From NCBI GenBank assembly GCA_963829875.1, contig CAWHKR010000017.1, forward strand, positions 6,057 through 70,056: 64,000 nt of DNA, written 5' to 3'. The first letter of the stretch is position 1. Each line of letters begins with the position of its first letter. Made by a program: the position numbers and the translations under genes. Positions 1-38,880 of the stretch are shown piece by piece. The notes under the pieces are model-generated. The model did not search any database. It was not told the DNA's origin and saw only the letters and a program-made list of their open reading frames with translations. The DNA comes from an uncultured Pseudomonadota bacterium. GTDB taxonomy: Bacteria > Pseudomonadota > Alphaproteobacteria > Acetobacterales > Acetobacteraceae.

Positions 1-661
1 CCCGCCGCCGTCGGCGCCGCCGTTCCGGATCGTGCTGCACGCCCGCTACAACCCCGAGCAGGTGACCGCCCTCAACATCGTTCCGGGTCTGATCGCGGTG
101 ATCCTGACCATCTCCACCCTGGTGCTCACTTCGGTCGCCATCACGCGGGAACGCGAGACCGGCACGATGGAGAACCTGCTGGCGATGCCGGTGCGCCCGC
201 TCGAAGTGACGCTGGGCAAGATCATCCCCTACGTGGGGCTGGCCTATGTGCAGACGGTGCTGATCCTGTTCATGTCGGTGGCGGTGTTCGGAGTGCCGGT
301 GCGCGGGTCGGTGCTGCTGCTGCTGGGCGCGCTCGGGCTGTTCATCGCCTGCAACCTGGCGATGGGGCTGGCGTTCTCCACCATCGCGCGGACCCAGATG
401 CAGGCGCAGCAGATGGCGCAGTTCGCCTTCCTGCCGAGCATGCTGCTGTCGGGGTTTCTGTATCCGTTCGCCGGGATGCCGGCCTGGGCGCGGGCCATCG
501 GGGAATGCCTGCCGATCACCCACGCGCTGCGAATCTGCCGCGGCATCCTGCTGAAAGGCAACGGACCGGCCGAAATCTGGCCCGACCTGTGGCCCATGGC
601 CGCCTTCGCGCTTGTGGTCGGCGCCATCGCCGTGCGCATGTACCGCGAGACGCTGGACTGA
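1..661 (+). CDS. ABC-2 type transporter permease, C-terminal part (5' end lies outside the window)
   Basis: The reading frame is open from the window edge (...FRIVLHARYNPEQVTALNIVPGLIAVIL...). The translation is multi-TM with the ABC-2/YhhJ-YbhS-like segment TRERETGTMENLLAMPV. Stop at 659-661. Confidence 0.8.
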   Translation, partial: PPPSAPPFRIVLHARYNPEQVTALNIVPGLIAVILTISTLVLTSVAITRERETGTMENLLAMPVRPLEVTLGKIIPYVGLAYVQTVLILFMSVAVFGVPVRGSVLLLLGALGLFIACNLAMGLAFSTIARTQMQAQQMAQFAFLPSMLLSGFLYPFAGMPAWARAIGECLPITHALRICRGILLKGNGPAEIWPDLWPMAAFALVVGAIAVRMYRETLD

Positions 662-700
662 ACCCTGTCGGCCGTGGGGGGCGGGGTCCGGCAAGAAAGT

Positions 701-730
701 AAGGCCAGGGGGCAGCTGCCCCCTGGCCTT
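701..730. terminator. Perfect 30-bp GC-rich palindrome, probably a bidirectional terminator; copy 1 of a REP-like hairpin family
   Basis: AAGGCCAGGGGGCAGCTGCCCCCTGGCCTT, with flanking AGAAAG/CTTTCT extending the stem. It lies between the convergent stops at 661 and 753. Related copies are at 4408-4433 and 42566-42593. Confidence 0.6.
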
Positions 731-752
731 GCTTTCTGGACGGCCCCGTTCC

Positions 753-1736
753 CTACAGCGACAGCTTCAAGGCCGCGGCGATTTCGCCGACGATGCCGCG
801 GCGGAAGGCGAGGACGCAGACCACGAAGACGGCTCCTTGGGTAACGGTGACCCAGGAGCCGAACTGCGCCAGGTAGTTTTCCATCGAGGTGGTCAGCACC
901 GCGCCGACCACCGGTCCGAACACGGTGCCGAGCCCGCCGAGCAGGGTGGTGAGGACCACTTCGCCCGAGCGGGCGGAGCCTACTCCGTCCAGGGTGGCGA
1001 TGCCGAACACCACGGCGCTGGTGGCTCCGGCGATGCCCGAGAGGAAGGTGGAGAGCACGAAGGCGATCAGTTTGTAGTCCTGCGTGCGGTAGCCGAGCGA
1101 GGTGGCGCGCGGCTCGTTTTCCCGGATCGCTTTCAGGACCTGGCCGAAGGGGGAGTGGATGACGCGGTGGATCAGCAGGAAGCCGGCCAGGAAGATGCCC
1201 GCGGTGAGCCAGTACATCGTCATGTCGTGTCGCAGCGAGAAGATCCCGAAGGCGGTGCCGCGGGGCACCTGCTGGATGCCGTCCTCGCCGCCGGTGAACG
1301 GCGCCTCGACGCAGAAGAAATAGACCATCTGGGCGAGCGCCAGGGTGATCATGGCGAAGTAGATGCCCGAGCGGCGGATCGCCAGGTAGCCGAGCGCGAG
1401 GCCGAGCAGCCCGCCCGCGGCGCCGCCGATCAGGATCGCGACCACCGCATCGACGTGCCAGAACTTCAGGGTCCAGGCGCCGAGATAGGCGCCCATGCCG
1501 TAGAACGCGGCATGTCCGAAGGACAGCAGGCCGACGTAGCCGATCATCAGGTTGAAGGCGCAGGCGAACAGCGCCGCGGTCAGGACCCGCATCAGGAAGA
1601 TCGGGTAGAGCACGTACGGCAGCACGGCGATCGCCGCCACCAGGATCACGAAGCCGATTGCCTGGGACCGGCTGAAGCCGAACAGGCCGGGGCGGGACGC
1701 GGCGACGGTCGCGGGTGCGGAGGAGACGGACATCAA
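753..1736 (-). CDS. livM: Branched-chain amino acid ABC transporter permease (LivM-like)
   Basis: 327-aa polytopic membrane protein with LivM-type motifs (GYVGLLSFGHAAFYGMGAY, VGSARSGEVVLTTLLGGLGTVFGP). Its start overlaps the livH-like stop by 4 nt. Confidence 0.85.
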   Translation of the reverse strand: MMSVSSAPATVAASRPGLFGFSRSQAIGFVILVAAIAVLPYVLYPIFLMRVLTAALFACAFNLMIGYVGLLSFGHAAFYGMGAYLGAWTLKFWHVDAVVAILIGGAAGGLLGLALGYLAIRRSGIYFAMITLALAQMVYFFCVEAPFTGGEDGIQQVPRGTAFGIFSLRHDMTMYWLTAGIFLAGFLLIHRVIHSPFGQVLKAIRENEPRATSLGYRTQDYKLIAFVLSTFLSGIAGATSAVVFGIATLDGVGSARSGEVVLTTLLGGLGTVFGPVVGAVLTTSMENYLAQFGSWVTVTQGAVFVVCVLAFRRGIVGEIAAALKLSL

Positions 1737-17112: not shown

Positions 17113-19296
17113 TCAGGCGGGGCTCAGGAACAGGGTGGCAAGCGGCGGCACGGTGAGGGAGAGCGACGCGGGCAGATCGTGGCTCGGTTCCTCCGTCGCC
17201 GTCAGCGCCGGGTCGTTGGCGAGCCCGGCGCCGCCATAGGCGACGGCATCGGTGTTCAGCAGCTCGCGCCAGCGGCCGGCCTGCGGCACGCCGAGCCGGT
17301 AGCCGTGGCGCGGCACCGGGGTGAAGTTGCTGACCACGAGCACCGGCGGATCGGCCTCGGTGCCGAAGCGCAGCCAGGCGAACACGCTCTGCGCCCGGTC
17401 GTCGATGACCACCCAGCGGAACCCCGCGGGCTCGGTGTCGCGCGCATGCAGCGCCGCGGTGGCGGTGAGCAGCCGGTTGAGGTCGCGGGTCAGCCGTTGC
17501 AGCCCGCGATGGGAGGGATCGTCCAGCAGGTGCCAGTCCAGCGCCGCGTCGTGGTTCCATTCCCGCTCCTGGCCGAACTCTCCGCCCATGAACAGCAGCT
17601 TCTTGCCGGGATGGGCCCACATGAAGCCCAGATAGGCGCGCAGGTTGGCGAAGCGCTGCCAGCGGTCCCCCGGCATGCGCCCGAGCAGGGAGCGTTTGCC
17701 GTGCACCACCTCGTCATGCGACAGCGGCAGCACGAAACGTTCGGAGAAGGCGTAGACGAGGCCGAAGGTCATCCGGTCGTGGTGGTAGCGGCGATGCACC
17801 GGGTCCTGCTGCATGAACTCCAGCGTGTCGTGCATCCAGCCCATGTTCCACTTGTAGTCGAACCCCAGCCCGCCTTCCGCCGCGCCGCGGGTGACACCGG
17901 GCCAGGCGGTGGATTCCTCGGCGATCAGCAGCCGGTCCGGGCAGCGCTCCGCCACCACGTCGCTGAGTTCCTGCAGGAAGGCGATCGCTTCCAGATTCTC
18001 CCGCCCGCCATAGCGGTTGGGCACCCATTCGCCGGCCTTGCGGCTGTAGTCGCGGTAGAGCATGGACGCGACCGCATCCACGCGCAGCCCGTCCACGCGG
18101 AAGCGCTCCAGCCAGTGCAACGCGCTGCCGATCAGGAAGCCGCGCACTTCGTTGCGGCCGAGGTTGTAGATCACCGTGTTCCAGTCCGGATGCCACCCCT
18201 CCCGCGGGTCGGCGTGCTCATAGAGCGCGGTGCCGTCGAACCGGGCCAGCCCGTGCGCGTCGCCCGGGAAATGCGCCGGAACCCAGTCGAGAATGACGCC
18301 GAGACCGGCGGCATGGCAGCGGTCGATGAAGTCGGCGAAGGCCTCCGGCGGGCCGAGCTGCGCGGTCGGCGCGAACTGGCCGAGCGGCTGGTAGCCCCAG
18401 GAGCCGGCGAACGGATGTTCCATCGCCGGCAACAACTCGATGTGGGTGAACCCCATCGCCGTGACATAGGGGATCAGCCGATCGGCCAGCGCGTCCCATC
18501 CGCAGGGGCTGGCGCCGGGCAGGGGCATCCACGAGGGCGCGTGGACCTCGTAGATCGACAGCGGCGCGTCCGTGGCCTGGCGCGCGCCGCGCCGGGCCCG
18601 CCAGGCGGCATCGTCCTCGCGGTTGGTCAACGGCGCGGCGACGATCGAGGCGGTGGCCGGGGCCGGCTCGGCGGCGAAGGCCACCGGATCCGCCTTCAGC
18701 GGCAGCAGGTCCCCCTGCGGGCCGAGCAGCTCGTATTTGTAGAGCGTCCCGGGCAGCAGCCGGGGGACGAAGATTTCCCACACCCCGGCGACGTGACGCA
18801 GCCGCATCGGATGGCACCGTCCGTCCCAGGCATTGAAGCCGCCCACCACCGAGACCCGCTGCGCGCTCGGCGCCCAGACGGCGAAGCGCACGCCGTGCAC
18901 GCCTTCGATCTCGACGCAATGCGCGCCCAGGCAGTCGTCGAGCTGGCGATGCCGGCCTTCGGCCAGCAGGTGCAGGTCGAGATCGCCGAGCACCGGCCCG
19001 AAGGCATAGGGATCCTCGGTCTCGCGCAGGCCCTGCCCCTCATGGATGCGCAACACGTAGGGCACGCGGGCGGGCAGCGTCCCGACATGCAGACCGGCGG
19101 GGTGCGCACGTTCCATCGTGGCCAGGACTTGTCCCGCGACCGGATCGACCAGCTCCACCCGGCGCGCGGCGGGCAGGAATGCGCGGACGATCCAGCCGCC
19201 GTCGTGCGGATGCGGGCCGAGCACGGCAAACGGATTGCCGTGGCGCCCGTGCACCAGGGACTCGACGGTGGCGGGATCGAGGCTGGAGTCACTCAT
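17113..19296 (-). CDS. glgB: 1,4-alpha-glucan branching enzyme GlgB
   Basis: [38 protein letters not shown] prefer the ATG at 19296 ([15 protein letters not shown]). The 32 aa upstream are Arg/Trp-rich, and this ATG overlaps the treS stop (ATGAGTGA). Confidence 0.9.
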
Positions 19297-22200
19297 GCGC
19301 CATCTCCTCGGCCGGGGCCAGGAGCCGCGCCGCCAGGTCCGCGAGGCCGTGCAGCGGGATCGGCAGCCAGGACGGCCGGTTGGCGGCTTCATAGCGGATT
19401 TCGTACGCGGCCTTTTCGATCAGGAACAGGTCGAGCAACGATGTCTCGGCCTCCGCCCCGGCCCAGGGCTGCGGGGCCGCCGCATGGGCCGCGCGGTAGG
19501 CGGTGAGGAACGCCTCCTTGGCCTCATCGCGGAACCGATCCAGCAGCTCGGCCGAGCGCTGGGAAACCTGGGATGACGGGTCGGCATGTCCTTCCGCGGC
19601 GGTGGCCGTGAGATAGTCGATCGATCGCAGCAGCCCCGCCACGTCGCGCAACGGGGACGACTTGCGCCGCCGCTCGGCGAGCGGGCGGGCCGGCTCGCCC
19701 TCGAAATCGATGATGAAGACGTCGTCCTGCACCGCGAGCACCTGACCGAGATGGAAGTCCCCGTGCACCCGGGTGCACCAGGCGCCGGTCCCGTCCGCGG
19801 CCAGCCGCCGCACCGCCGCTTCGAGCGCGGGCCCCTGGGCGAGCAGGTCGGTCGCCAGCGTCTGGCTGGCCGGGTCGTGCCAGGTCTCCGTCGCGCGCAG
19901 CACCGCGAGCGCGCCGTGGATCTGCGCCAGCGCCGAGTCCGCCCAGCCGTGCAGCGCCGCCGGGCCGGCGGGTTCGGGCGTGAAGGCCGCGTCCTCGCAG
20001 GGCATCGCCAGCTGGGCGTGCAACTCCCCGAGCCGCTGGCCGAGCGTGTGGATGAACCGCAGGCCGGGCGCGAACGCGTCGGCCCGGGTGGCCTCGTCGG
20101 CGTCGGTCAGGGCCAGCTCTCCCACGACCCGGGCGAGGAAACTCTGGGCCCAGCTCCAGCCGTCGCCCTGGTTGCGCACGAAACTCTGCACCAGGATCAG
20201 GGTGTGCGGGGTGCCCTCGGCGTCGATCCGGACCACCTCGCCCACCAGCGCGGCGGTGTTCGGGAACCCGCGCTCGGTCAGGAATCGGGTCATCTCCGCT
20301 TCGGGATGGATGCCGGCCGCAACGTGACGGATCATCTTCATCACCAGCGCGTCCCCGACCACGAGCGAGCTGTTGGTCTGTTCGGCCGACAGCCGCCGGA
20401 TATCCGGCGTCTCCGGCAGGTCGAGCGCGGCGAGCCGTGCCGTGGGCAGGAACCGGATCGCCTCGCCCTCGGGCAAGGCGAACGTCGCGCTGCTGCGCAG
20501 CCCGCCCAGGATCACGTCGGCGAAAGCGTCCACGGCGAACCCGTCGGTCAGCATGCCGACCCGGCGGCCGCGGCGCAGCCGCGCGAGGCCGAGCTGCTGC
20601 GGCAGCGCCTCGATGGTATCTTCTTCCCACATCACGCCGAGCGGCAGCAGATAGCGTTCGTGGCTGGCGTCGAGCTCGGCGTCCACCTCGACCAGCAGGA
20701 TCTGCTCGGCGGCGCCGTGCAGCGGCAGCGCGTAGGCGATCCGGCAGCGGCGCAAGGCCTGGTCCTTGGAGGCGAACCAGCGGCGCTTGGGCAGATAGGC
20801 CGGCAGGATGTCGGTCTCGAGCAGCCGGCGCGAGGCGGGGGCCATCACCTCGGCGATGTCGTGGCGCACCACCAGGGTGACGAACTCGGGCAGCGGCTCC
20901 GGCGCGGGAAGGTGCCACGGCGGCAGGGCGGCCTCGGTGGTCAGCACGAACCACAGAAAGCCATAGGGCGGCAGGGTCAGCAGGTAGGGCAGCTGCCCGA
21001 TCGGCGGGAACACCGCGCCGCCGATCGCATCAACCGGCACCCGGCCCGCGAACTCGGCCAGCGCCAGCTCCACCGCCTGCGCGGTGCGCGAGAGGTTGCT
21101 CACGCACAGGATGGTCTCGTGCGTCTCGTCGTAGGCATATTCGCGCAGGAACGCCAGGATCTTGCGGTTGCCGGGATAGAGGAAGCGCTGCGTGCCGCGG
21201 CCGAACGCGTGAAACCGGCCGCGCACCGCGAGCATCCGGCGCGTCCAGTTGAGCAGCGAGTGCGGGTCGGCCGCCTGCGCCTCGACATTGACCGCATCGT
21301 AGCCATAGATCGCGTCCATGATCAGCGGCAGCATCAGGTTGGCCGGATTGGCCCGCGAGAAGCCGCCGTTGCGATCTGGCGACCACTGCATCGGCGTGCG
21401 CACCCCGTCGCGGTCGCCAAGGTGGATATTGTCGCCCATGCCGATCTCGTCGCCATAGTAGATGACGGGCGTCCCGGGCATCGACAGCAGCAGGTTGTTC
21501 ATCAGCTCGATGCGTCGCCGGTCATGCTCCATCAGCGGCGCGAGGCGGCGGCGGATGCCGAGATTGAGCCGCGCCCGGCGATCGCTCGCATAGGCTTCCC
21601 AGAGGTAGTCGCGCTCCTGGTCGGTGACCATCTCCAGGGTCAGCTCGTCGTGGTTGCGCAGGAAGATCGCCCATTGGCAGTTGCCGGGAATCTCGGGCGT
21701 CTGGCGCATGATGTCGGTGATCGGAAAGCGGTCCTCGCGGGCGATCGCCATGTACATGCGCGGCATCAACGGGAAGTGGAACGACATGTGGCATTCGTCC
21801 CCCTCGCCGAAATATTCCTGCGCGTCTTCCGGCCACTGGTTGGCTTCCGCCAGCAGCATCCGGCCTTGCGCATGCGCGTCCAGCTCGGCGCGGATGCGCT
21901 TCAGGATCGCATGGGTCTCCGGCAGGTTCTCGTTGATCGTGCCTTCGCGCTCGACCAGATAGGGCACCGCGTCGAGGCGCATGCCGTCGACGCCGAGATC
22001 GAACCAGAACCGCATCACCGACAGCACCGCCCGCAGCACCGCCGGGTTGTCGAAATTGAGGTCGGGCTGGTGCGAATAGAAGCGGTGCCAGAAATAGGCG
22101 TTGGCGACCGGATCCCAGGTCCAGTTGGATTTCTCGGTATCGACGAAGATGATCCGCGTGCCGGCATAGCGCTGGTCGTCGTTCGACCAGACATAGAACT

Positions 22201-22603
22201 TGTGCCAGGCGCTGCCCGGTTTTGCCCGCCGGGCGCGCTGGAACCACGGATGCTGGTCGGAGGTGTGGTTGATCACCAGCTCGGTGATCACCTTGAGGCC
22301 GAGCCGGTGCGCCGCCTGGATGAACCGGCGCACGTCCGCCAGGGTGCCGTAGTCCGGATGCACGTCGCGGTACTCCGCGATGTCGTAGCCGTCGTCCCGC
22401 CGCGGCGAGGGGTAGAAGGGCAGCAGCCAGATGGCGGTGACGCCGAGCTCCTTGATGTAGTCGAGCTTCTGCATCAGGCCCCGGAAATCGCCGATGCCGT
22501 CGTTATTGCCGTCAAAGAACGACTTGACGTGCGTCTGATAGATCACTGCGTCCTTGTACCACAGCGGATCGCCTGCCGGCGGCGAAGATTTGGCGCTGGT
22601 CAT
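19289..22603 (-). CDS. treS: Trehalose synthase / maltokinase fusion (TreS-Pep2)
   Basis: The TreS half has [52 protein letters not shown] and RNHDELTLE. The C-terminal kinase half has [11 protein letters not shown]...[12 protein letters not shown]. The start MTSAKSS at 22603 lies 8 nt after the glgE stop. Confidence 0.9.
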
Positions 22604-22611
22604 GGCGGCGG

Positions 22612-25600
22612 TCACCTCGGCCGGTTCAGGCGCCAGATCGCAAACGGCCGCGCCGCCGGATCGAGACGCAGATGTTGTTGCTTTCCGTGCCGCAGGAGGT
22701 CGCTCCCCTCCATCAGGTCCTCGGCCCGCAGGGTGCCGCTGTCCGGCAGTCCCCACTCCCACAGCGGCAGTTCGAAATCGGTTTCCTGCACATTGTACGG
22801 ATCGAGGCTGACCGCGATCAGCAACGCGTTGCTGCGATCCTCGGTGGCCTTGCCGTACAGCAGGATGGTGTCGTTGGCGGTATGGTAGAAACGCAGGCCC
22901 AGATGCGACCACAGCGCCGGATTGTCGCGGCGGATCCGGTTGAGGCGGGTGATCTCCGCCGTGATGTGGCCGGGCTGGGTCCAGTCCCGGACCCGCATTT
23001 CGTATTTCTCGGAATCGAGATATTCTTCCCGCCCCGGCAGCGGGGCCGCCTCGCACAACTCGAAGCCGGAATACACGCCCCACAGGCTCGACAGGGTGGC
23101 CGCCAGCGCGGCGCGGATCAGGAAGCCGGCGCGCCCGGAGTCCTGGAGGAACCGCGGGTTGATGTCGGGGGTGTTGACGAACAGGTGCGGCCGGAAGAAC
23201 TCGCGCGCCGGCCCGGTGGTCAGCTCGGTGAAATACGCCTCCAGTTCCGCCTTGGTGTTGCGCCAGGTGAAATAGGTATAGGACTGGGAGAAACCGATCT
23301 TGGCCAGCCGGTACATCATCTTCGGCCGGGTGAACGCCTCGGACAGGAAAATCGCGCCCGGGTCACGGCCCCGCACGTCGGCGATCAGCCATTGCCAGAA
23401 GGGCAGGGGCTTGGTGTGGGGATTGTCCACACGGAAGATGCGCACGCCTTCGCCCAGCCAGAACAGAACCACGTCGCGCAGCGCCATCCACAGCCCGGGC
23501 ACCGCGCCGGACCGGTAGAAGTCGACATTGACGATGTCTTCGTATTTCTTGGGCGGGTTCTCGGCATAGCGCAGCGAGCCGTCGGGCCGCCAGTCGAACC
23601 AGTCGGGATGCGCGCGCAGCCACGGATGATCGGGGGAGCACTGGATGGCGAAGTCGAGTGCCAGTTCCAGCCCGTGCGCCAGCGCGGCCTCGCGCAGACG
23701 GCGGAAGTCTTCCAGGGTGCCGAGCTCGGGGTGGATGCTGTCGTGCCCGCCTTCCTCGGCGCCGATCGCGTACGGGCTGCCCGGATCTTCGGGCGTCGCG
23801 CTGGGGGCGTTGTTGCGGCCTTTGCGGTTGGTGCGGCCGATCGGATGGATCGGCGGAAAATAGAGAACGTCGAAGCCCATGTCGCGGATGCGCGGCAGGT
23901 GGCGGATCACGTCGGCGAACGTGCCGTGACGGGTGGGATCGTCGCTCATCGAGCGCGGGAACAGCTCGTACCAGCTTGCGAACCCGGCCGCGGCGCGTTC
24001 GGCGTCGACAACGAGCGCCTGCTCGGTCCTGGAGCGGAACGGACGGTCGTCCGCGGCGCGCATCATCTCGGCTGTCGTGTCGGCCATCAGCGCAACCCGC
24101 CGGGCCGCACCGTCGCCCTGCTCCAGGCTGTCGGCCAGGGTCGCGAGCGCGCCACGCAACGGCTCGGCGCTGCGTCGGACCGCATGCAGAACCAGTTGGC
24201 GCCCTTCCTCGATCTCGACCGCAAGCGGCAGGCCGGCCGCGTGCTTCTTGGCAAGCTCGTCGCGGAACGTCGCGAACACGTCGCGCCACGCCTCGATGGC
24301 GAACTGGTGCCGGCCCGGCCGGCCGAGCGGAAAGCGTGCCTGCCAGCGGTCGTTGCCGAGCGGGCGCATCGGCGCTTCGTTCCAGGTGCCCTCGTCTTCC
24401 GCGCGCCAGAGCAGCATCGCCGCAAGCATGTCGTGTCCGTCGCAGATCAGGTCCGCCTCGACGGTCACGCTCTCTCCCATCACGCGACGGACCGGAAATG
24501 AACCGCCGGTCACGCAGGGACTGACGTCCTCGATGGCGATCCGCGGCGCCTTGGCGGCAGCGCGGACGGCGGGCCCTGCCGGCGGCGGGCGGCGCTGCAC
24601 CGGCGTGGCGGGAACCGCCTGCATCACGCGCACCTCCCCGGGGTCGACGCGCAGGGCCTCCCCCGGCCGCAGTCGTTCCGTCGCGTCCTCGAAATGTCCG
24701 AACGGGCCCGCCGCGCCCGGCAGCAGGGCCGAGGCGGAGATCTCGTGCGGCGCGGCGAGGTCGACGTTGGCGAGCACCAGCGCGGCCTGGCTGGCGCCGC
24801 GGAGATCCGGCGCCGCCGCCCGCAGCAGGGCGATCACGTCTGCGCCAGGACCGCTCAGCAGGCGCACCGCGCCGCCGCCGCAGTCAGCGGCTTGCGTGCG
24901 TCGTGCGTTGGCGGCGACGATGGCTTCGCTCAGATCGAACGGGGCGGCCTCGCGCGCAGCGATGAAATCCTCGGCCCGCCCGTGCCCGGCCCGCAGCGGA
25001 CCCCGGGCCGCGTATTCGAAACCCATCGGCATCAGCCAGCCGGATTCCAGCGCCGCCGCGCAGCCGATGGCGCGCCGGCAGGCCGCTTCCAAAGTCGCCG
25101 GATCGCGCCACGCGGCGGCCAACCGGGGACCGAACGGCGCCTCCGGCGCCGCGACAATCGGCGCCACAGGGCGCAGCGCGGCGGCTTCGTCCCACAGCCA
25201 GCCGGCACGGAAATCCCACCACGGCAGGGAGGAGAACACGCCGTCCAGCCCCGCGCCGCGCAACCCGGCCAACGCCGGCCGTGGCAGGCCGGGCGTCCAG
25301 CCGAGAAACAGGACCTCCGGCGCCTGCCGGTGCACCGCCTCGATCAGGGCCCGCAGGCCGGCCGGCGGCACGCCGTGCAGGGAGTCGATCCGCACCCCCG
25401 CCACCCCCGCCGCGGCCCAGCCGAGCACCCGCTCTGCCCACAAATCCACGAGACCGGCCGCCGCTTCCGGCTGGTCCCAGCGGGCCCGCACGGCGCCGAA
25501 CGCTCCGGCCGGCGCACGCGGGTCGAGCGCGGCGAGGCGATCCGCCGGCTCGAACAACTGCGGGTGCGCCGCCAAGGTGGTTGAATCCGCCGCAACGCGG

Positions 25601-25902
25601 TTGATCACGAGATCCATCAACATCCGCAACCCGCGTGCGCGGCATTGCTCCGTCGCGTAGCCGATCGCCGCGTGCGCATCCCCTTGCCAGCCGAGCGCGG
25701 GATGGGGACTTGTGTCGTCGGCGGTCAGGAAGATGTCGGCGACATGTCCGGGCGCAAACAACGGCGCGACCAGAACATGGTCGAACCCGAGTTCGGCACA
25801 CCGGTCGAGATGCGCATCCCACTCCCGCAACACTCCGGCAAGGAGAGGATGAAGATAATAGATCCCTGGAGAGAATGACGAAGATTTCTCGATGACCATC
25901 AC
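22612..25902 (-). CDS. glgE: Alpha-1,4-glucan:maltose-1-phosphate maltosyltransferase GlgE, long form with an extra N-terminal ~450 aa
   Basis: The C-terminal ~645 aa are canonical GlgE ([55 protein letters not shown]). The N-terminal ~450 aa look like a second, degenerate amylase-type unit. Start is GTG 25902 or ATG 25899. Confidence 0.85.
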
Positions 25903-27186
25903 TTTCGAAAGATAGCGGTCGCCCTCCGCAAGTCAAGTCTTTCTGCCGGCGACGCCGCGCTGGCGCAGCGTCTTGCCAGTCCTCTGTCGGGCATGACGTA
26001 CGACCATTGTTCGCTGTCTGTTCGAGGTGCCCGGCGCGGCCTGAATGTTGCGACCGTGCCGGGTGCATCCCTCGCACCGCCGGACCGCCGGATCCGATCC
26101 CGCGACAGCGGGCGGGGGGACGTCCGGGTCGGATTGCCGTTGCATCCTTGTCCGAAGGGTTGCGGATGAAGGCGCGCTGCCAGGCGCCTATCCGGTCGAC
26201 GTGTTGCACTCCGGGACTGCTGCTTTTCAGCCAGGTGACAGCCGGGGATTGCGACAGGCGGCTGCGAATGATCCCGAAGGATGAACATCGGCATGATACC
26301 GGGCCATCCGGGGTCGGGCGGTCAACAGGCATATCTCCTGCTGCCCATCGCCGACGAAGCGGCGGCAATACAAGAGACGAAAAGATAACGAAACCACAAG
26401 GGAAATTTCACTGTACCGCAGAGCTCGTGCAAGCTTGCTCCCGCAAGCCCAGGCTCGCCGCGATCAAGGCACGACAGGGTTCGCAGCCAAACACTGCGCA
26501 AAAGTAACGGACCTGAACCATAACAAGACTGCGGACTGGTCTGCCATGGGTGACCATGCGGCATCCGGGCGTGCCGGTCCGGGAAACCGCCGCGTGATCT
26601 CGGAGGCGCGTTCGCAGCGGCTTCCGTCCGTAGCCGGGGAGCGGGTGGCGACGTGGCGTCGTGATGCCCGTGGCGGGCGCGCGCGAAGCGACGACCCGGC
26701 TGCGTCCCTCCGGTGCGGCCGGCGTCCCGATCGGGCCGCGCTACCAGCCGCGCCGCGCAGGGAGGTCCGAGCGGAACCGCTCCCGACGTCTGTAACTTCT
26801 ACGTAACCGTCCGGGGGCTATCCGCAGGCAGAGCCTGGGGTGATTTCAGGTTCCGGAGATTTCGGCGCCCCCGGTTCGGCGTCCCTCGGCCGGACCTGCT
26901 GGCCTGGGGCCGTCACTTGGCGTGTGGCGGGCGCCGTGATCGGCTATGTCATGGTCTTGCCGTGCCGACCCGCTTTTCCGGCCAGGGGGGCATCCCATCG
27001 TCCGCCCGCATTGACCACGCCGGGTCATCGGATCGTCCGGCCGGCGGAAGGGGAGTTGCACCGATCACACACCCGACGTCGCGCGAACATCACGCGGACC
27101 GGTTCAACGAGCCGTCGGCCGGCGCCGCCCGCCCGGGCCGGATCCTGACCGGGTTGTTGCGGATCCAGACCTGGATCCTGCGCGAG

Positions 27187-30100
27187 ATGGCCGCCGGACG
27201 ACCGGCGCAGGCCCTGGCCGAGGAACTGTGCCGCCGCGTCCGCCACTACGCCCCGAACCATATCGTGACCTTGATGCAGGTCGGGCGGGACGGGCTTCTG
27301 CATCCGGTCGCCGCGGCCGGCGCCTCGCCGGCGGTGTTGGCGGCGATCGACGGGCTCGCGCCGGGGCTGAGCAACGGGTCCTGTGCCGCGGCGGTCTACC
27401 ACGGCGTGCCGGTCCTGGTGGAGGACGCCAGCCGCGATCCGCGCTGGGCGGAGCGCCGCGACCTGGCCGCGACGCATGGCATCCACGCCTGCTGGTCGCA
27501 TCCGGTCTCGCAGGGGGGGCGGCTGATCGGCAGCTTCGCCCTCACGGGCCCCGAGCCCGGCGCGCCGGTTCCCGCACTGCGCGGGCTGCTGGAACACGCC
27601 GCGGCGATCGCCGGCAGCGTCCTGCAACTGCTCGAGCTGCAGGACGCGCAGCGGCGCCAGGCGGAGCGGGTGCGGCGGCTGGCCGGGTTCAACGCCATGC
27701 TGGCGCAGGTGAACCAGCTTGCCGCCAGCCGACCCGATACGGCGAGCCTGTATGCGGGCATCTGCCGCATCGCGGTGGCGCAGGCCGGCCTTCGCCTCGT
27801 CTGGATCGGCGCGCCGGACGGCGCCGGCGTGGTCCGCCCGATTGCTGCGGCCGGAGTCACCGGTTTCCTCGATGAGGTGGTCGTCAGCGCCGATCCCGCC
27901 CTGCCCGAAGGCCGCGGCCTGTCCGGCACGGCCTGGCGGGAGGCACGCACCGTGGTGTGCCAGCGCTTCGCGCCCGACACGATGATGGCCCCGTGGTTCG
28001 AGTCCGCCCGCCGCGTCGGCCTCGGCGCCGGCGCCGCCTTGCCGCTGATGCTGCGGGGCGTTCCGCAGGCGGTGCTGCATGTCTTCGCCGCCGAGGAAGG
28101 CGTTCTGGATGCCGAGCTGGTCGGCCTCGTCGAGGAGCTGGCCGTCGACATCGGCCGCGCGTTGGAGGCACTCGACCAGCAGCGTCACCTCGATCGTCTG
28201 CAGGCGCTGCACACGGCGCTGCTGACCGAGGGCGAGATCCTGCTGCAGGCACGCAGCGAGGCCGAGATGCTGCAGAAGACCTCCGCCCAGCTCGGCACCA
28301 GCAGCCTGTTCCATGTCACCTGGATCGCGCGGCCGGATGCCGAGGGGGTGATGCGGCCGCTGGCCGGCGCGGGGCCGGGGATGGCGTTGCTGGCGCAGCA
28401 GCGCCTGGCGCTTGATGACGAGCCGCCGGCGTTCATCGTGCGGACCTGGCGCGCCGGACGGCCGCTGGTGCACAACGACCTGCTCGGCGACCCCGATCTC
28501 ACGCGCTACGGCGAGATGTTCGTGCGGGATGGATGGCGATCGGCTGCGGCGGTCCCGGTGCTGCGCGGCGGCGCCCAGTTCGCGGTGATGCTGCTGGGGT
28601 CCCAGCACCCGGCGCTGTTCACCCCCGACGTGCTCGCCCTGTGCGAGCGGATCGCCGGCCTGCTGGGCCGCGGCCTCGACGAGCTCGACCTCAAGGAGAC
28701 CCTGGAACAGGAGCGCAGCCGGCAGTTCCACCTTGCCCGGCACGATCCGCTGACCGGCCTGCCCAACCGGTTGTTGTTCGAGGAGCATCTCGGACACGCG
28801 CTGGCGCGCGCCGAACGGCGGGGCACCCCGCTGGCGGTGTGCCTCGTGGATATCGATGATTTCAAGCCGGTCAACGATCGCTGGGGCCACCACGCGGGTG
28901 ACGCGATGCTGCGCGAGGTCGCAACCCGGCTGCACGATGTGGTGCGCCGGTCGGACCTCGTCGCGCGCCTGGGCGGCGACGAGTTCGTGCTGGCGATCGA
29001 GGATCTCGGCACCCTGCGGGCGCTGCCGGGGCTGCTCGAGCGGCTGTCGGCCGCGATCGAGACGCCGATCGACCTCGGTCCGGGGGGCACGCCGATTGGT
29101 CTCAGCGTCGGCGTCGCGGTGTTCCCCGAGGATGGCGAGGACGCGGACATCCTGCTGCGCCGCGCCGACGCAGCGCTTTATGTCGCCAAGGCGCGCAAGG
29201 CGGTGCGGAACCAGGATTGGCAGCGTTGGAACGCCGACCTGGCACCGGATCCGGTCGCCGCTCCGGGACTGGACGACCCCTATGGGACGGAGGCGCAGCG
29301 GCTGCTGCGGGCCACGGCCACCGTCTGGCCCGACCTCGCGGCCGGGTTCCTGGACGATTTCTACCGCGACCTCGCCCGCCATCCGCTCGCGGCGCCGCTC
29401 CTGGCCGCCCTGGCGCCGGAGGAGCTGGCGCGGCTCAAGACCCGGCAGCAGGCGCATCTGCGCCTGCTGATGGACCCCGCCACCGACCGCAGGGCGCTGC
29501 GCCGCCGGGCCCGGGCGATCGGCCGGGTCCATGCCCTGGCCGGCGTCGATGGCGCGCTGCTGATGCAGGCGATTGGCATCTACCAGGCGCGTCTGACCGG
29601 GCAGCTCGCGGCGCAGCCGCTGCGTCCGGCCGACCGGCAGAACCTGCTGACCCTGGCGACCGCCCGGCTGCAGGAAGACGGCACCGCGCAGATGGAGGTC
29701 AGGACCGACATCATCGCCGCTTACTTCACCGCCTTGCTGCGCCGCCCGCCGCACCCCGATACCCCCTGGGTCGATGCCGTCCAGGCGCAGCTGGATGTGA
29801 CGGCGGGGTTGCCGGGGATCATGGCCGTCTGCCTGCAACATCCGGACACGGACGGGCGGTTCCAGGTTCTGGCGAGCAGCAGCGCCGTCGGCGTGTCCTT
29901 CCCCGACATCCGGGCCACGAGCGGGGCGGCGCCTGTGGTCGACCCGGCGCGGCCCGAAGGCCGCGGCCTGATGGCGGAAGTCTGGCGTACCGGCGAGATC
30001 GTGGTCTCGACCAATTTCCAGACCGACCCGCGCACCGTCCCCTGGCATGCCGCGGCGCGGCGGCTCGGCGTGCGCAGCGCCGCGGTGCTGCCGCTGCGTG

Positions 30101-31315
30101 ACGACGACGACCGGCCGATCGCGGCGCTGCTCCTGATGGGCGCCTATCCCGGACAGTTCAACACGATGTGGATGCGCCATTTCTGCGTTGGCATGGCGCT
30201 GACGTTCAAGCTGCTCTGGCGCCGGCGCCGGCGCCGCGGGGCGGACCCGGTGGCGGTGGTGCCGGAGACAACCGCCGTGGCCTGGCGGCGTCGCCTGTTC
30301 ACCGGCGGGTTCCGGTTCGATTACCAGCCGTTGGTCAGCCTGCGCGACGGCCGCGCGGCCAAGGTCGAGGCGCTGGCCCGGCTGGTCCAGGACGACGGCG
30401 CGGTCGTCATGCCCGCGCAGTTCCTGCCGGTGCTGGGCGCGCGCGATCTTGATGAGCTGTTCCGGCTCGGCGTTGACCGAGGCGCTGCGCCAGGTGAGCG
30501 GTTGGGAGGCAGACGGCCTGTCCCTGGGGGTGACCGTCAACCTCGCCCCCGCCACCCTGGCGCGGCCCGATTGCGTGCGGTGGGTGCGCGACGCGCTGCG
30601 CGCGACCGGCGTCGCCCCCGGGCGGTTGTGCCTCGAGATCACCGAGGATCAGGCCCTGAGCGAAACCGACGAAACCTCCGCCGCAACCTTGGTCGCCCTG
30701 GCGCAGCTCGGGGTGAGTCTGGCGATGGACGATCTCGGCTCCGGCTACAGCAGCCTGCGCCGGCTGCGCGCCTTGCCGTTCCGCGTCGTGAAGCTCGACC
30801 AGGGGTTGGTCCACGGCGTGCTGCGTTCGCCGGTGCGCACCGTCAGCTTCATCGGCGCCCTGGTCCAACTGGGTCGGGACCTCGAGATCGAGGTGGTGGT
30901 GGAAGGGCTGGAAAGCCCGGACATGGTGGAGGCCGCGGCGCTGCTCGGGGCCGACGTGGGCCAGGGTTTTTCGCTCGGCCGGCCGATGCCGGCGGAGGCG
31001 CTCGCGGCCTGGGCGCGCGACTTCACCTGGACGGTCGATCGCCATCTGCCGCGCACGCCGCTCGGCGCCCTGGCGATGATGTGGCGTGGCAGCCATGTCG
31101 GCGCCGCCGGTCCGGCGCCGCCGGAGGCCTGCTCGGTGTCGCGCTTCCTGGCCGCGCAGGGGTTGGGCGGGAGCAGGCTGGACCGGGCGCACCAGGCTCT
31201 GCATGCGCTCGCGGCCAGCGACGGCCGCCGCAGCCCGCGCTACCGGGCGGCCTACGGGCGGTTCCAGCAGGCGCTGGCGCGGATGATGACGGAGCCGGCC
31301 GGCGGACCGGCCTGA
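27187..31315 (+). pseudogene. Multidomain c-di-GMP enzyme GAF-GAF-GAF-GGDEF-sensor globin-GAF-EAL, with an apparent +1 frameshift inside the EAL domain as sequenced
   Basis: GGDEF (28972-28986) is preceded by the RRSD I-site. A globin-sensor-like segment is present (FYRDLARHP...LKTRQQAHLRLL...IGRVHALAGVD). EAL motifs are YQPLV, KVEALAR, then in the +1 frame LEITED, DDLGSGYSSL, VKLDQ, EGLE, GQGF. The frame junction is at about 30465-30475. Length is 4129 nt = 3n+1. The start is uncertain (ATG 27187, or TTG 27154/27157). Confidence 0.8.
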
Positions 31316-31402
31316 TCGCGGCGGGCGCGATGGCGGTGAACAGCTCCCCTGCGCGGGCGCGGGCTGGTGCGGCCTGGGGGAAGCGGCCACACTGACCGGG
31401 CG

Positions 31403-35400: not shown

Positions 35401-35416
35401 GGCCGCCCGCCGCCGC

Positions 35417-35734
35417 TCAGGGGGCCGCCGTCACCCGCAATGTCACGCCGGCGTGGCGTTGCAGGCAGAGGATCACGCCGAACAAATTGCGCGCCTGCGG
35501 GTTGCCGCGCGGGCCGAACATGCGGATCAGGCTTTTCGGCGGCGTGCCGGTTTCCGCGGCCAGTTGCGCGAAGCCGAGCGTCGCCTTGATGTAGTCACGC
35601 AGGACCGTCTTGCCGGTCTCGACATCGCCGGCCAGCAGGGTGTCGATCGCCTCGCGCAACAGCGCCGCCCCGAACGCGGGGTCGGCGGCGACGCGGCGTT
35701 GCACCAGGTCCTTGAAGCTGCGGGTCAGTACCAT
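35417..35734 (-). CDS. HTH antitoxin (COG3636 'addiction module antidote', HigA-like), copy 1; orphan next to a decayed toxin
   Basis: 105 aa with ...GTPPKSLIRMFGPRGNPQARNLFGVILCL.... The protein is identical to copy 2, with 2 synonymous nt differences (35429, 35597). GGAGG lies upstream. Confidence 0.8.
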   Translation of the reverse strand: MVLTRSFKDLVQRRVAADPAFGAALLREAIDTLLAGDVETGKTVLRDYIKATLGFAQLAAETGTPPKSLIRMFGPRGNPQARNLFGVILCLQRHAGVTLRVTAAP

Positions 35735-35747
35735 CGGTCGCCTCCGT

Positions 35748-35816
35748 TCATGCCGCGCCGCGCGCCCAAAAATACACCCGGCGGCCTTGCCTCCGGTCGA
35801 TCCGATACGCTGTCAT
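35748..35816 (-). pseudogene. Remnant of a COG3657 (RelE/HigB-like) toxin gene
   Basis: MTAYRIDRRQGRRVYFWARGAA* aligns with YRIDWGPGYRVYFGRDGA...RGAA* of the intact toxin at 36423-36749. There is an internal deletion of about 107 bp, and everything N-terminal is lost. Confidence 0.55.
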
Positions 35817-35857
35817 CGCGAACCTTGTTGATGAGCGGCGGGCAGCGGAGGGATTCA

Positions 35858-36040
35858 ACGCAGATGCACGCAGATGCACGCAGATGTCCGCAGATATGCG
35901 CAAATGGACCGGGCGGAACGGCCGGTCGGCGGCACCGACCCGAGGCGGCAGCCTGCGCTGCCGCGCGGGCTCGGGTCGAAGCGGCATGCGGCATCTGCGT
36001 CTATCTGCGTTCATCTGCGTTCATCTGCGTTCATTTGCGT
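35858..36040. repeat. 183-bp palindromic element: two inverted arms of five tandem decamers (ACGCAGATGC-like) around a nested GC hairpin
   Basis: Left arm 35858-35907: ACGCAGATGC ACGCAGATGC ACGCAGATGT CCGCAGATAT GCGCAAATGG. Right arm 35991-36040: GCATCTGCGT CTATCTGCGT TCATCTGCGT TCATCTGCGT TCATTTGCGT, which is the reverse complement. The centre holds CGACCCGAG/CTCGGGTCG and GCGGCAGC/GCTGCCGC stems. Confidence 0.75.
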
Positions 36041-36091
36041 TTTGACCTTCCCGACTCCCAGCCGGGGCTGCGGGGCGCCTGCCGCCGCCGC

Positions 36092-36409
36092 TCAGGGGGC
36101 CGCTGTCACCCGCAATGTCACGCCGGCGTGGCGTTGCAGGCAGAGGATCACGCCGAACAAATTGCGCGCCTGCGGGTTGCCGCGCGGGCCGAACATGCGG
36201 ATCAGGCTTTTCGGCGGCGTGCCGGTTTCCGCGGCCAGTTGCGCGAAGCCGAGCGTCGCCTTGATGTAGTCCCGCAGGACCGTCTTGCCGGTCTCGACAT
36301 CGCCGGCCAGCAGGGTGTCGATCGCCTCGCGCAACAGCGCCGCCCCGAACGCGGGGTCGGCGGCGACGCGGCGTTGCACCAGGTCCTTGAAGCTGCGGGT
36401 CAGTACCAT
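36092..36409 (-). CDS. HTH antitoxin (COG3636, HigA-like), copy 2; paired with the intact toxin
   Basis: The 105-aa protein is identical to copy 1. It starts 13 nt after the toxin stop, with GGAGG in the spacer. Confidence 0.8.
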   Translation of the reverse strand: MVLTRSFKDLVQRRVAADPAFGAALLREAIDTLLAGDVETGKTVLRDYIKATLGFAQLAAETGTPPKSLIRMFGPRGNPQARNLFGVILCLQRHAGVTLRVTAAP

Positions 36410-36422
36410 CGGTCGCCTCCGT

Positions 36423-36749
36423 TCATGCCGCGCCGCGCGCCGCGCGCCGGTAGTCTGCCCACAGCCTCCGCGCCCGCTCGATATCCCGCTGCTGGCGCTG
36501 CTTCGTGCCGCCGGTCAGCAGGATGACGAGGGTTGCGCCGTCCCGCCCGAAATAGACCCGGTAGCCCGGCCCCCAGTCGATCCGATATTCCAGCACACCC
36601 TCTCCGACCGCTTGCGCGCGCGACAGGTTGCCCTGGCCGAGCCGCACCAGCGCCATCGTGACCTTCGTCGCCGCCATGGCGTCGAGCCGGCCGAACCACG
36701 TCGCGAACGGCTCGCTGCCGTCGTCGGTGACGAGGAAGCGCAGCTCCAA
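36423..36749 (-). CDS. Type II toxin (COG3657 'addiction module killer', RelE/HigB superfamily)
   Basis: ...FATWFGRLDAMAATKVTMALVRLGQGNLSRAQAVGEGVLEYRIDWGPGYRVYFGRDGATLVILLTGGTKQRQQRDIERA matches the family pattern. No ATG is available, so I infer a TTG start at 36749 (108 aa), which is uncertain. Confidence 0.7.
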   Translation of the reverse strand: MELRFLVTDDGSEPFATWFGRLDAMAATKVTMALVRLGQGNLSRAQAVGEGVLEYRIDWGPGYRVYFGRDGATLVILLTGGTKQRQQRDIERARRLWADYRRAARGAA

Positions 36750-37767: not shown

Positions 37768-38880
37768 ATGACCGACCGCCTCCGCGCCACCTACCGCCTG
37801 CGCGCCGACCCCGCCGCGATCGACGCCCGCGCCCGGGCGATCGCGGTGGAGCAGAGCGTGGAGATGCCGCTCGACGCGATCGACGCCCCGCGCATCCTGG
37901 CCGAGGTGGTGGGCGAGGTGGCGCAGATCACCGATCGCGGCGGCGGCGTGTTCGACGTGCGGATCGGTCTCGCTGCGGAAACCGTGGGGCAGGACGCCGG
38001 GCAGTTGCTGAACATGCTGTTCGGCAACACCTCGCTGCACCCGGACGTGACCCTGGTGGGGATCGACCTGCCCGCGGCGATGGCGGCCGGCTTCGGCGGC
38101 CCGCGGCTCGGCCTCGCCGGGTTGCGCGCGCGGCTCGGGGTCGCCGGCCGGGCGCTGACCGGCTCGGCGCTGAAACCCCAGGGCCTGCCGCCCGCGGCGC
38201 TGGCCGCGCTGGCCGGCCGCTTCGCCCGCGGCGGGATCGATCTCGTGAAGGACGACCACGGCCTGGCCGATCAACCCACCGCGCCCTTCGCCGCCCGGGT
38301 GCCCGCCTGCGCCGAGGCGGTGCGCCGCGCCGCCGCCGCGACCGGCCATCCCACGCGCTACGCCCCCAGCCTGTCCGGCCATCATGGCCAGATGCGCGCG
38401 CAGCTGCTGCTTGCGCGCGAGGCCGGGGTGGATACCGTGCTGATCGCGCCGATGATCGCCGGCTTCGCCACGGTCCGGGCGCTGGCCGACGCGTTTCCCG
38501 ACATCGCCTTCCTCGCCCACCCCAGCCTGGGCGGCGCGGCGCGCATCGCGCCGGAGGTGCTGATCGGCACCCTGTTCCCGCTGATCGGCGCCGATGCGGT
38601 GATCTTCCCCACCCATGGCGGCCGCTTCGGCTACACGGAGACCACGTGCGGCGCGATCGCCGCCGCCGCCCGCCGCCCGGCGCACGGGCAGCGCCCGGCG
38701 CTGCCGGTGCCCGCCGGCGGGATGACCCTGGCCCGCATTCCCGAACTGCTTGATTTCTACGGCCCGGAGACGATGTTGCTGATCGGCGGCAGCCTGCTCG
38801 CCGCCGGTGCCGGCCTGACCGAGGCCACCGCAGACTTCGTCCGCGCCGTCGCGGACCATTCTTTCCGCAGGAACGCATGA
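37768..38880 (+). CDS. RuBisCO large-subunit-like protein (form IV RLP), short 370-aa type
   Basis: Counterparts of RuBisCO active-site segments are present: LKPQGL (KPKLG region), IDLVKDDHGL (KDDE region), AHPSLGG, PAGGM and GGSLL. There is no small-subunit or cbb gene nearby. Confidence 0.85.
   Translation: MTDRLRATYRLRADPAAIDARARAIAVEQSVEMPLDAIDAPRILAEVVGEVAQITDRGGGVFDVRIGLAAETVGQDAGQLLNMLFGNTSLHPDVTLVGIDLPAAMAAGFGGPRLGLAGLRARLGVAGRALTGSALKPQGLPPAALAALAGRFARGGIDLVKDDHGLADQPTAPFAARVPACAEAVRRAAAATGHPTRYAPSLSGHHGQMRAQLLLAREAGVDTVLIAPMIAGFATVRALADAFPDIAFLAHPSLGGAARIAPEVLIGTLFPLIGADAVIFPTHGGRFGYTETTCGAIAAAARRPAHGQRPALPVPAGGMTLARIPELLDFYGPETMLLIGGSLLAAGAGLTEATADFVRAVADHSFRRNA

Follow-up and report, generated by a model that had tools for sequence, protein, structure and literature searches.

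A sensor globin between the GGDEF and EAL halves of a predicted bifunctional c-di-GMP enzyme from an uncultured Acetobacteraceae bacterium, and the widespread family that shares this order

Can a sensor globin work from the middle of an enzyme that is predicted both to make and to degrade cyclic diguanosine monophosphate (c-di-GMP), and is such an arrangement a local fusion or the property of a family? The question is raised by a gene on the forward strand of a 64,000-nucleotide stretch of DNA, referred to here as the window, from an uncultured Acetobacteraceae bacterium (assembly GCA_963829875.1, contig CAWHKR010000017.1, positions 6,057 to 70,056). The gene, at 27187-31315 with its stop codon at 31313-31315, encodes a protein of 1375 residues when one extra base near 30472 is dropped. 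The original prediction, made from the letters alone, had read in this protein three GAF domains, a GGDEF domain, a segment of ~115 residues taken for a sensor globin, a fourth GAF domain, an EAL domain and a tail of ~100 residues, and both Pfam and our own hidden Markov models (HMMs) return the same order in the frame-corrected protein. Our analysis indicates that the locus is probably a member of a large and conserved family of bifunctional c-di-GMP enzymes in which a heme-based gas or redox sensor would tune the enzyme. Judged from the sequences, this family has an invariant core that runs from GGDEF through the sensor globin, a GAF domain and EAL to a tail with conserved Cys and His, and in the window protein three GAF inputs precede it.

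By its sequence and its predicted structure, the internal segment is a globin of the globin-coupled-sensor type, with the proximal histidine and the distal tyrosine at the expected positions. Pfam Protoglobin (PF11563) matches residues 701-822 of the full protein with 38.8 bits against a curated cut-off of 25, and the segment alone with 45.1 bits (E 1.4e-11). A search of the Protein Data Bank (PDB) with the single sequence of the segment gave no globin match and a profile was required. Such a profile, made from 23 family sequences over the globin segment (alignment A1), retrieved V. vulnificus RsbR (7o0i, E 8.7e-6), HemAT (1or4), Tlr1989 (8h17), AfGcHK (5ohe) and GsGCS (2w31). In the profile alignment with HemAT, “FYreL” stands opposite “FYKNL” and “GevHALvG” opposite “ASIHLRIG”; Y726, in “FYRDL”, falls on HemAT Tyr70, and H782 falls on HemAT His123 as well as on the His of V. 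vulnificus RsbR. In HemAT, Tyr70 is the distal B10 tyrosine and His123 is the proximal F8 histidine. Moreover, the AlphaFold2 (AF2) model of the globin built with A1 is confident (predicted local distance difference test score, pLDDT, 91.4; predicted template modelling score, pTM, 0.83) and has eight helices, the final H helix being 37 residues long (814-850). With this helix the globin spans about 150 residues (701-850), so that the ~115 residues first assigned to it were too few. When the model was compared with the PDB by Foldseek, ranks 1-21 were all sensor globins (DosC, AfGcHK, BpeGReg, HemAT, GsGCS, Tlr1989), with the DosC globin 4zva as the best (target-normalised TM score 0.81, root-mean-square deviation 1.7 A, 135 columns). 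It could be argued that an Ala- and Leu-rich helical linker resembles a globin by chance, given the outcome of the single-sequence search and an identity to solved globins of just 14-20%. This we regard as improbable to the point of being negligible, and it was rejected: the Pfam score lies above the curated threshold, the five different sensor globins retrieved by the profile all have their heme residues opposite those of the segment, and the confident model is matched by sensor globins alone down to Foldseek rank 21. Both the globin HMM match and the globin fold that the original prediction had called for were found.

The other domains were delineated with Pfam, run on the frame-corrected protein, and with own HMMs built for each domain from the orthologues; Protoglobin, GAF, GGDEF and EAL were all matched (Table 1). 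Pfam GAF and GAF_2 mark four stretches, best at residues 8-143 and 187-327, and the own HMMs add GAF domains at 345-500 and 866-1012. The GGDEF motif is intact and an RRSD I-site lies five residues upstream of it, as predicted, and the domain thus carries the sequence marks of an active diguanylate cyclase, namely an intact GG(D/E)EF motif and an RxxD I-site at that distance. The residues expected of an active EAL phosphodiesterase are likewise found in the corrected protein (EALAR 1061-1065, N1118, EITE 1150-1153, DD 1181-1182, K1202, E1239 and Q1259). The predicted motifs EAL (1061), DDLGSG (1181), KLD (1202), EGLE (1239) and QGF (1259) can all be read from the sequence, but in the window they are spread over two frames, and the coding sequence is interrupted in this genome. 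The globin does not follow the canonical globin-coupled sensor layout, in which it stands at the N-terminus; here three GAF domains and GGDEF come before it, it spans residues 701-850 of 1375, and the GAF-EAL output is on its C-terminal side.

Table 1. Coordinates in the window of the gene for the GGDEF-globin-GAF-EAL protein and of its parts
Feature	Position	Residues	Strand	Basis or remark
Whole gene	27187..31315	1375 in total	+	One base skipped; start probably TTG 27154 or GTG 26962
GAF domain 1	27208..27615	8-143	+	Pfam GAF
GAF domain 2	27745..28167	187-327	+	Pfam GAF_2; own HMM 186-330
GAF domain 3	28219..28680	345-498	+	Own HMM 345-500; Pfam GAF_3 451-498
GGDEF diguanylate cyclase domain	28735..29199	517-671	+	Pfam E 5.5e-45
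I-site RRSD	28945-28956	587-590	+	Read from sequence
GGDEF motif	28972-28986	596-600	+	Five residues between RRSD and motif
GGDEF-globin linker with conserved DPYG motif	29200..29286		+	Family linker lengths; alignment A1
Sensor globin	29287..29736	701-850	+	Pfam Protoglobin, AF2, Foldseek, profile alignment
Distal Tyr726	29362-29364	726	+	Aligned with HemAT Tyr70
Proximal His782	29530-29532	782	+	Aligned with HemAT His123
GAF domain 4, between globin and EAL	29782..30222	866-1012	+	Own HMM; one of four Pfam GAF_2 stretches
EAL phosphodiesterase domain, split over two frames	30280..30985	1032-1266	+	Pfam E 7e-51, corrected protein
Extra base (frameshift) inside EAL	30472..30475		+	Frame change relative to orthologue sequence; also in contig L001
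C-terminal helical tail	31016..31312	1277-1375	+	Family conservation; AF2 pLDDT 89.6

The window protein is far from alone in this domain order. At full length it has ~24 orthologues, complete or partial, with 48-74% identity from Rhodospirillales, Acetobacteraceae and “Rhodocyclaceae” metagenome-assembled genomes (MAGs); orthologues P0001-P0024 are single open reading frames (ORFs) of 1349-1476 residues with the same range of identity. In relatives that are further removed, at 35-40% identity, PAS or hemerythrin domains take up the N-terminal part. An exhaustive search of 1.84 billion cluster representatives with the A1 profile returned 626 proteins at E<=1e-3, of which 361 reached E<=1e-10 and 154 E<=1e-30, and in the best 150 matches the globin is almost always internal, beginning ~660-690 residues from the C-terminus. 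Mapping our own domain HMMs on the best 150 family representatives gave the order GGDEF-globin-GAF-EAL-tail in nearly all of them, with GGDEF upstream of the globin in ~140, and the shorter patterns look like genes truncated by contig ends. The window protein itself maps as three GAF domains, GGDEF, globin, GAF4, EAL and tail. Pfam confirmed the cassette order on P0122, P0128 and P0126, and the precomputed Pfam order of P0001 agrees. The linkers are short and closely confined in length throughout the family, with medians of 20 residues between GGDEF and globin (range 17-37), 6 between globin and GAF, 16 between GAF and EAL and 6 between EAL and tail; within the first of them, D8 and G11 (numbering of A1) are nearly invariant. 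In contrast to this core, the N-terminal part is variable and holds 0-4 GAF domains in addition to PAS, hemerythrin or membrane regions that are invisible to the own HMMs.

The catalytic residues hardly vary. The GGDEF motif is kept in at least 130 of 140 members and the I-site in 124 (R) and 118 (D) of the 140; for EAL, the positions checked (E, L, R, N, DD, K, E and Q) are each retained by 119-122 of the 122 relatives, and because of this conservation both enzymatic halves look active across the family.

As to who carries these proteins, the named hosts include Thiomonas sp. FB-Cd, Thiomonas sp., Halothiobacillus sp. DCM-1, Paludibacterium sp., Aquitalea, Acidicaldus, Ferrovum and Acidiferrobacterales, with cultured hosts in Thiomonas and Halothiobacillus. 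One member from a mine-drainage metagenome is labelled “Diguanylate cyclase DosC”, and the other named entries have generic labels only. A scan of a genome collection with the globin-GAF4 segment found just one MAG orthologue (OY970156.1, 69% identity) and did not return the genome of the window itself, and a homologue search seeded with alignment A1 returned no matches. In P0026, P0135, P0185, P0416 and others, an N-terminal hemerythrin domain (PF01814) stands before the cassette; such members would combine in one protein two different candidate sensor domains that bind O2 or iron.

Does the family need heme? Among 151 members the proximal His is kept in 141 and the distal Tyr in 122, being otherwise Phe, His or another residue, and other globin positions are still more constant (R827 in 151, G779 in 150 and G786 in 148 of the 151). 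The constraint on the heme ligand residues, as far as the alignment can tell, is thus strong and not absolute, and because ~7% of the members are without the His and ~19% without the Tyr, heme cannot be a requirement of every one of them. This leaves room for the suggestion that the internal globin serves without heme as a scaffold or for dimerisation, or that it binds some other ligand and senses no gas. Besides the members from which the His or the Tyr is gone, among them P0006, which lies in tandem with a His-containing paralogue, it may be invoked for this suggestion that the best PDB sequence match is an RsbR-type protein and that non-heme globin families are documented (PMC8717448). Nevertheless, we consider a heme-free globin improbable. 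The His persists in 93% and the Tyr in 81% of the representatives across very divergent sequences, both residues align with the heme residues of HemAT, and every one of the nearest structural matches is a heme sensor globin. Even the RsbR match speaks for heme, if its globin (7o0i) binds heme as we assume. It comes from the V. vulnificus stressosome, which the title of PMC9237108 describes as an oxygen sensor. The tandem paralogues themselves, P0006 and P0008, are found on one MAG contig (L005, 10001-18789; GCA_035531335.1, DATKTC010000022.1). In P0006 the proximal His is replaced by Leu and the distal Tyr by His, and Pfam Protoglobin gives no match, whereas P0008 keeps both residues, and the two look like a natural pair of heme-less and heme-competent proteins.

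The C-terminal module also exists by itself. Six representatives are composed of globin, GAF, EAL and tail only, with no GGDEF domain; two of them, P0142 (662 residues) and P0164 (678 residues), lie within long contigs and start with “MLDPYG...” directly at the globin. A cultured example is WP_244817502.1 (706 residues) of Caballeronia sp. Lep1P3. These three proteins share the C-terminal module of the window protein, yet their globin is N-terminal and they are without both the GGDEF and the N-terminal GAF domains. On Caballeronia plasmid p1 (NZ_CP084267.1; L004, 2573-6055), the gene for WP_244817502.1 adjoins a divergently transcribed gene for a 327-residue GGDEF protein, and in its domains this pair, carried by a strain in culture, corresponds to the fused cassette divided over two genes. 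The original prediction had suggested that a GAF3-GGDEF protein was fused to a globin-GAF-EAL protein. The stand-alone module lends substance to the second of these partners, but a recent or local event is not what we find: a lineage-specific fusion was rejected because almost every one of the 150 top-ranked representatives has the same fixed cassette, with a GGDEF-globin linker of 17-37 residues.

How could the globin act on its neighbors? It would bind heme b through H782, and the globin dimer would shift when O2, NO or CO is bound or when the redox state of the iron changes. This shift would travel along the long H helix and through a link of 3-10 residues into GAF4, changing the activity of the EAL phosphodiesterase, and the signalling would resemble that of canonical sensors, whose globin is N-terminal to the output. 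We count the stand-alone globin-GAF-EAL-tail proteins as support for such an EAL-directed output. That a gas gates the phosphodiesterase half, as the original prediction had suggested, is plausible. The same movement may also alter the geometry of the cyclase dimer, because GGDEF lies only ~20-30 residues upstream of the globin; the enzyme would then toggle between being a net producer and a net consumer of c-di-GMP. Further inputs would come from the GAF domains at the N-terminus and from the tail. Perhaps, then, the internal globin is a two-way hinge at which the ligand of the heme, O2 as opposed to NO or CO, or its redox state, Fe(II) as opposed to Fe(III), reciprocally switches the flanking cyclase and phosphodiesterase, with the GAF domains and the Cys/His site of the tail as additional inputs. 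We put this forward tentatively and would not call it the likely outcome.

A different arrangement can be imagined as well, in which the globin mainly regulates the upstream GGDEF domain and the GAF-EAL part is controlled separately through GAF4 and the tail, or in which GGDEF is itself a GTP- or c-di-GMP-sensing regulator of EAL. This would fit with the short, length-constrained GGDEF-globin linker and its conserved DPYG motif, with the position of GGDEF before the globin in ~140 of the 150 representatives, and with the divergently transcribed GGDEF gene that adjoins the stand-alone module gene of Caballeronia. Even so, it appears rather unlikely to us. In every characterised globin-coupled sensor the output is C-terminal to the globin (PMC10882959), the stand-alone proteins would work with no GGDEF domain at all, and the linker between globin and GAF4 is even shorter (median 6 residues) and continuous with the H helix.

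Returning to the reading that we prefer, namely a heme-based sensor that tunes a bifunctional enzyme, several points weigh against it. The identity to solved globins is low, as stated above. Some members have replaced the heme residues (for example His to Leu in P0006 and His to Tyr in P0023). The catalytic domain that the globin would address is deduced only from the domain order and from the stand-alone module. Finally, the frameshift in the EAL domain is common to two assemblies that differ by 1-1.5%, as would be expected of a genuine mutation in an ancestor no less than of a recurrent error in base calling.

This frameshift deserves closer attention. ORF 26713-31395 (+) covers the three GAF domains, GGDEF, the globin segment, GAF4 and the start of EAL, and past “...DELFRLGV” its translation is Arg/Gly/Pro-rich nonsense. 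The remainder of EAL and the ~100-residue tail are in the next frame, in ORF 30449-31315; frame 1 ends sensibly at 30471 and the next frame continues from 30473. Because every orthologue reads DELFRLG[VLM][ATS]EAL at this site with the same length, the window holds exactly one extra base at 30472-30475, and the EAL motif is therefore in a different frame from DDLGSG, KLD, EGLE and QG. The length of ~1,375 residues given by the original prediction holds after correction of the frame, although no single ORF of the window encodes it and the start is probably further upstream; the prediction spoke of a frame-corrected protein but left the interruption of EAL unsaid. The start is placed upstream of ATG 27187 because a conserved “LLRIQTxILRxM” stretch precedes this codon. 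The N-terminus “MLRIQT” of orthologue P0018 corresponds to TTG 27154, and GTG 26962 is the other in-frame candidate.

Contig L001 (ENA ERZ25039549 contig_55520), which is 99% identical to the window, has the same extra base in EAL. Should the change be real, the gene would be a pseudogene here, or at least its phosphodiesterase would be dead, as E1061 and R1065 are separated from the other catalytic residues; translation would yield GAF3-GGDEF-globin-GAF with ~300 out-of-frame residues behind it, and the architecture would matter only in the relatives. The presence of the identical frameshift in an independent contig favours this possibility, as does its position away from long homopolymers, the sites at which long-read errors are commonest. 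On the other hand, both assemblies contain many single-base indels that break other conserved genes, and the other orthologues are all intact at the site. Along ~23 kb of the window (16989-40108) that were compared with L001, the two sequences differ by 154 substitutions and ~35 indel events, mostly single bases outside homopolymers, and each breaks genes that are whole in the other. In L001 the gene of interest has three further indels, because of which its product P0017 is only 1046 residues long. In a third long-read MAG (OY970156.1) the orthologue is interrupted elsewhere, whereas that from a short-read assembly is intact. Moreover, 13 of the 20 substitutions between window and L001 across the gene are synonymous. 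Ten of the 20 lie past the shift; read in the EAL frame, 6 of these are synonymous, including 5 of the 6 that fall inside the EAL domain, but in the read-through frame only 1 is synonymous and 9 are non-synonymous. If ~25-30% of changes are synonymous under neutrality, P is ~0.02-0.05 downstream and 2e-4 to 1e-3 overall, and because the downstream substitutions are mostly synonymous in the EAL frame, selection seems to have kept acting on it. When metagenome DNA was scanned for this site in both versions, extra base included or removed, the single match was unrelated and due to chance. Taken together, the extra base is likely an assembly or base-calling artefact common to both assemblies, while a gene truly inactivated in this organism is a possibility to which we give distinctly less credence.

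The tail shows a conserved pattern of its own, T-x-L-G-A-L-A-(Y/F)-H-W, C-P-L-T-x-F-L and (W)H-x-x-x-H. Cys1315 (31130-31132) and His1335 (31190-31192) are each kept in 100 of 114 members and His1339 (31202-31204) in 95, and a further His present in 74 is Met in the window protein. Such an arrangement recalls CZB (chemoreceptor zinc-binding) domains, in which three His and one Cys hold the zinc (H...C...HxxxH). Pfam finds no match on the window tail, CZB (PF13682) being absent at E<=1, and in two relatives the CZB scores, 24.5 and 15.4 bits, stay below the cut-off of 29.4. Among the nearest matches outside the family are many GGDEF-EAL proteins that Pfam marks as CZB, and when the trimmed tail profile was compared by hhalign with 16 EAL-CZB tails, the Cys and the HxxxH were aligned (probability 56.8%, E 1.1e-4). 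In PAS-GGDEF-EAL-CZB proteins such as P0444 of Rhodocyclus gracilis and P0455 of Propionivibrio limicola, the zinc ligands align with the Cys...HxxxH of the tail; unlike them, the window tail has no Pfam CZB match and has Met at the first His ligand. AF2 models the tail with five helices (pLDDT 89.6), for which neither a sequence match nor a Foldseek fold match was found in the PDB. The tail is therefore best described as a candidate metal or redox site of CZB-like type.

The family can be set beside several known systems. The globin-coupled diguanylate cyclases DosC (DgcO/YddV) of E. coli and BpeGReg of Bordetella resemble the window protein in their sensor-globin fold, the DosC globin being the best structural match, and in their role in c-di-GMP metabolism. 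Their globin, however, is N-terminal and drives a C-terminal GGDEF domain through a middle domain, whereas in the window protein GGDEF is upstream of the globin and GAF-EAL downstream, and identity is 14-18%. DcpG of Paenibacillus dendritiformis similarly unites sensor globin, cyclase and phosphodiesterase in one polypeptide, with a globin that we take to lie at the N-terminus, ahead of both catalytic domains; the window protein differs by its globin between the catalytic domains, the extra GAF before EAL, the three N-terminal GAF domains and the tail. DcpG, a globin-coupled sensor with GGDEF and EAL, is a precedent for opposite gas effects, in that O2 favours breakdown and NO favours synthesis (PMC10882959). 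HemAT of B. subtilis, AfGcHK, GsGCS, Tlr1989 and V. vulnificus RsbR are all matched by the family profile, but they have chemotaxis, kinase or stressosome outputs and N-terminal globins. In the phosphodiesterases AxPDEA1 and E. coli DosP (PdeO), a heme sensor placed before the EAL domain makes the enzyme responsive to O2 (PMC8846402), this sensor being a PAS fold and not a globin.

Protoglobin-linked c-di-GMP enzymes listed so far comprise DgcO, BpeGReg, AvGReg, PccGCS, DosD and the phosphodiesterase Chp1 (PMC8846402), and heme gas sensors are reviewed as an N-terminal sensor with a C-terminal output (PMC10882959). The remark that sensor globins are normally N-terminal agrees with the introduction of PMC10882959 and with PMC8846402. 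A survey of Acidithiobacillia reported Protoglobin in 80 and CZB in 62 of 387 GGDEF-EAL proteins (PMC6416229). Its Protoglobin-GGDEF-EAL-CZB listing is compatible with the family described here, the published labels being without domain order; thus AFE_1712 of Acidithiobacillus ferrooxidans, “Protoglobin-GGDEF-EAL-CZB” (PMC6416229), is compared by a label that omits the position of the globin. In the same way, “GCS-EAL” proteins of Acidithiobacillus caldus may by their label belong with the stand-alone globin-GAF-EAL-tail proteins, and so may Azorhizobium caulinodans Chp1 (AZC_0308), which is listed as a protoglobin heme phosphodiesterase (PMC8846402; PMC6416229). Plasmid tblastn searches aimed at the “GCS-GGDEF-EAL” protein of an Acidithiobacillus plasmid returned only Caballeronia and a spurious Natrialba match. 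In the literature, we found no paper that states the order GGDEF-globin-GAF-EAL or characterises a member. The view that the architecture is undescribed holds to this extent, but the layout is common in databases, as seen from the 361 clusters at E<=1e-10. We would therefore describe it as a variant on the theme of globin-coupled sensors, carried by a widespread, generically annotated and apparently uncharacterised family, and not as a singular fusion.

The surroundings of the gene are of less help. Glycogen and trehalose genes lie upstream on the other strand and a major facilitator superfamily transporter gene downstream, and a conserved gene neighbourhood was rejected, the neighbours of orthologue P0001 being entirely different. 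Rfam families, riboswitches included, were not found upstream of the gene, and the scan for promoter- and terminator-like sites yielded one promoter-like site on the reverse strand, no terminators and nothing able to serve this forward-strand gene. Comparison with L001 brought up further differences in the region. The reverse-strand ORFs 19289..23083 and 22612..25902 of the window form a single 2203-residue GlgE / trehalose synthase-maltokinase (TreS-Mak) gene in L001, with a second frame-breaking indel in the window near 22798, and this split points to error-prone long-read assembly. Near 26071-26079 there is a diverged block of ~30 bases with many gaps, and at 36022-36032 the two sequences differ by 11 bases in the copies of a TCTGCGTTCA-type repeat. 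Window positions 35402-35766 and 36082-36441 (~360 bases each) each match a second, non-collinear position of L001, which suggests a local repeat or rearrangement at 35402-36441. Further downstream, L001 also carries, at 20800-21912, collinear with about 37768-38880 of the window, a gene of the RuBisCO-large family (only 370 residues, probably a RuBisCO-like protein). The gene ahead of it, for YmdB, is split in L001, and the one behind it encodes a cupin.

All the parts of this protein are known, its architecture is already in databases under generic names, and the copy in the window is frameshifted in the assembly. Nonetheless, the studied globin sensors that control c-di-GMP are all N-terminal, and a family with its globin between the synthesis and the degradation domain is a natural test case. 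It raises the questions of how a single sensor might set the balance between two reactions that oppose each other and whether signals from a sensor globin can also run in the N-terminal direction, and these can be addressed directly with cultured hosts and with the simpler stand-alone module. If the globin does prove to switch both of its flanking enzymes, the cassette would represent an unstudied class of multi-signal c-di-GMP switches with members in hundreds of lineages of proteobacteria, of which many come from sulfur- or iron-oxidising and acid-mine habitats.

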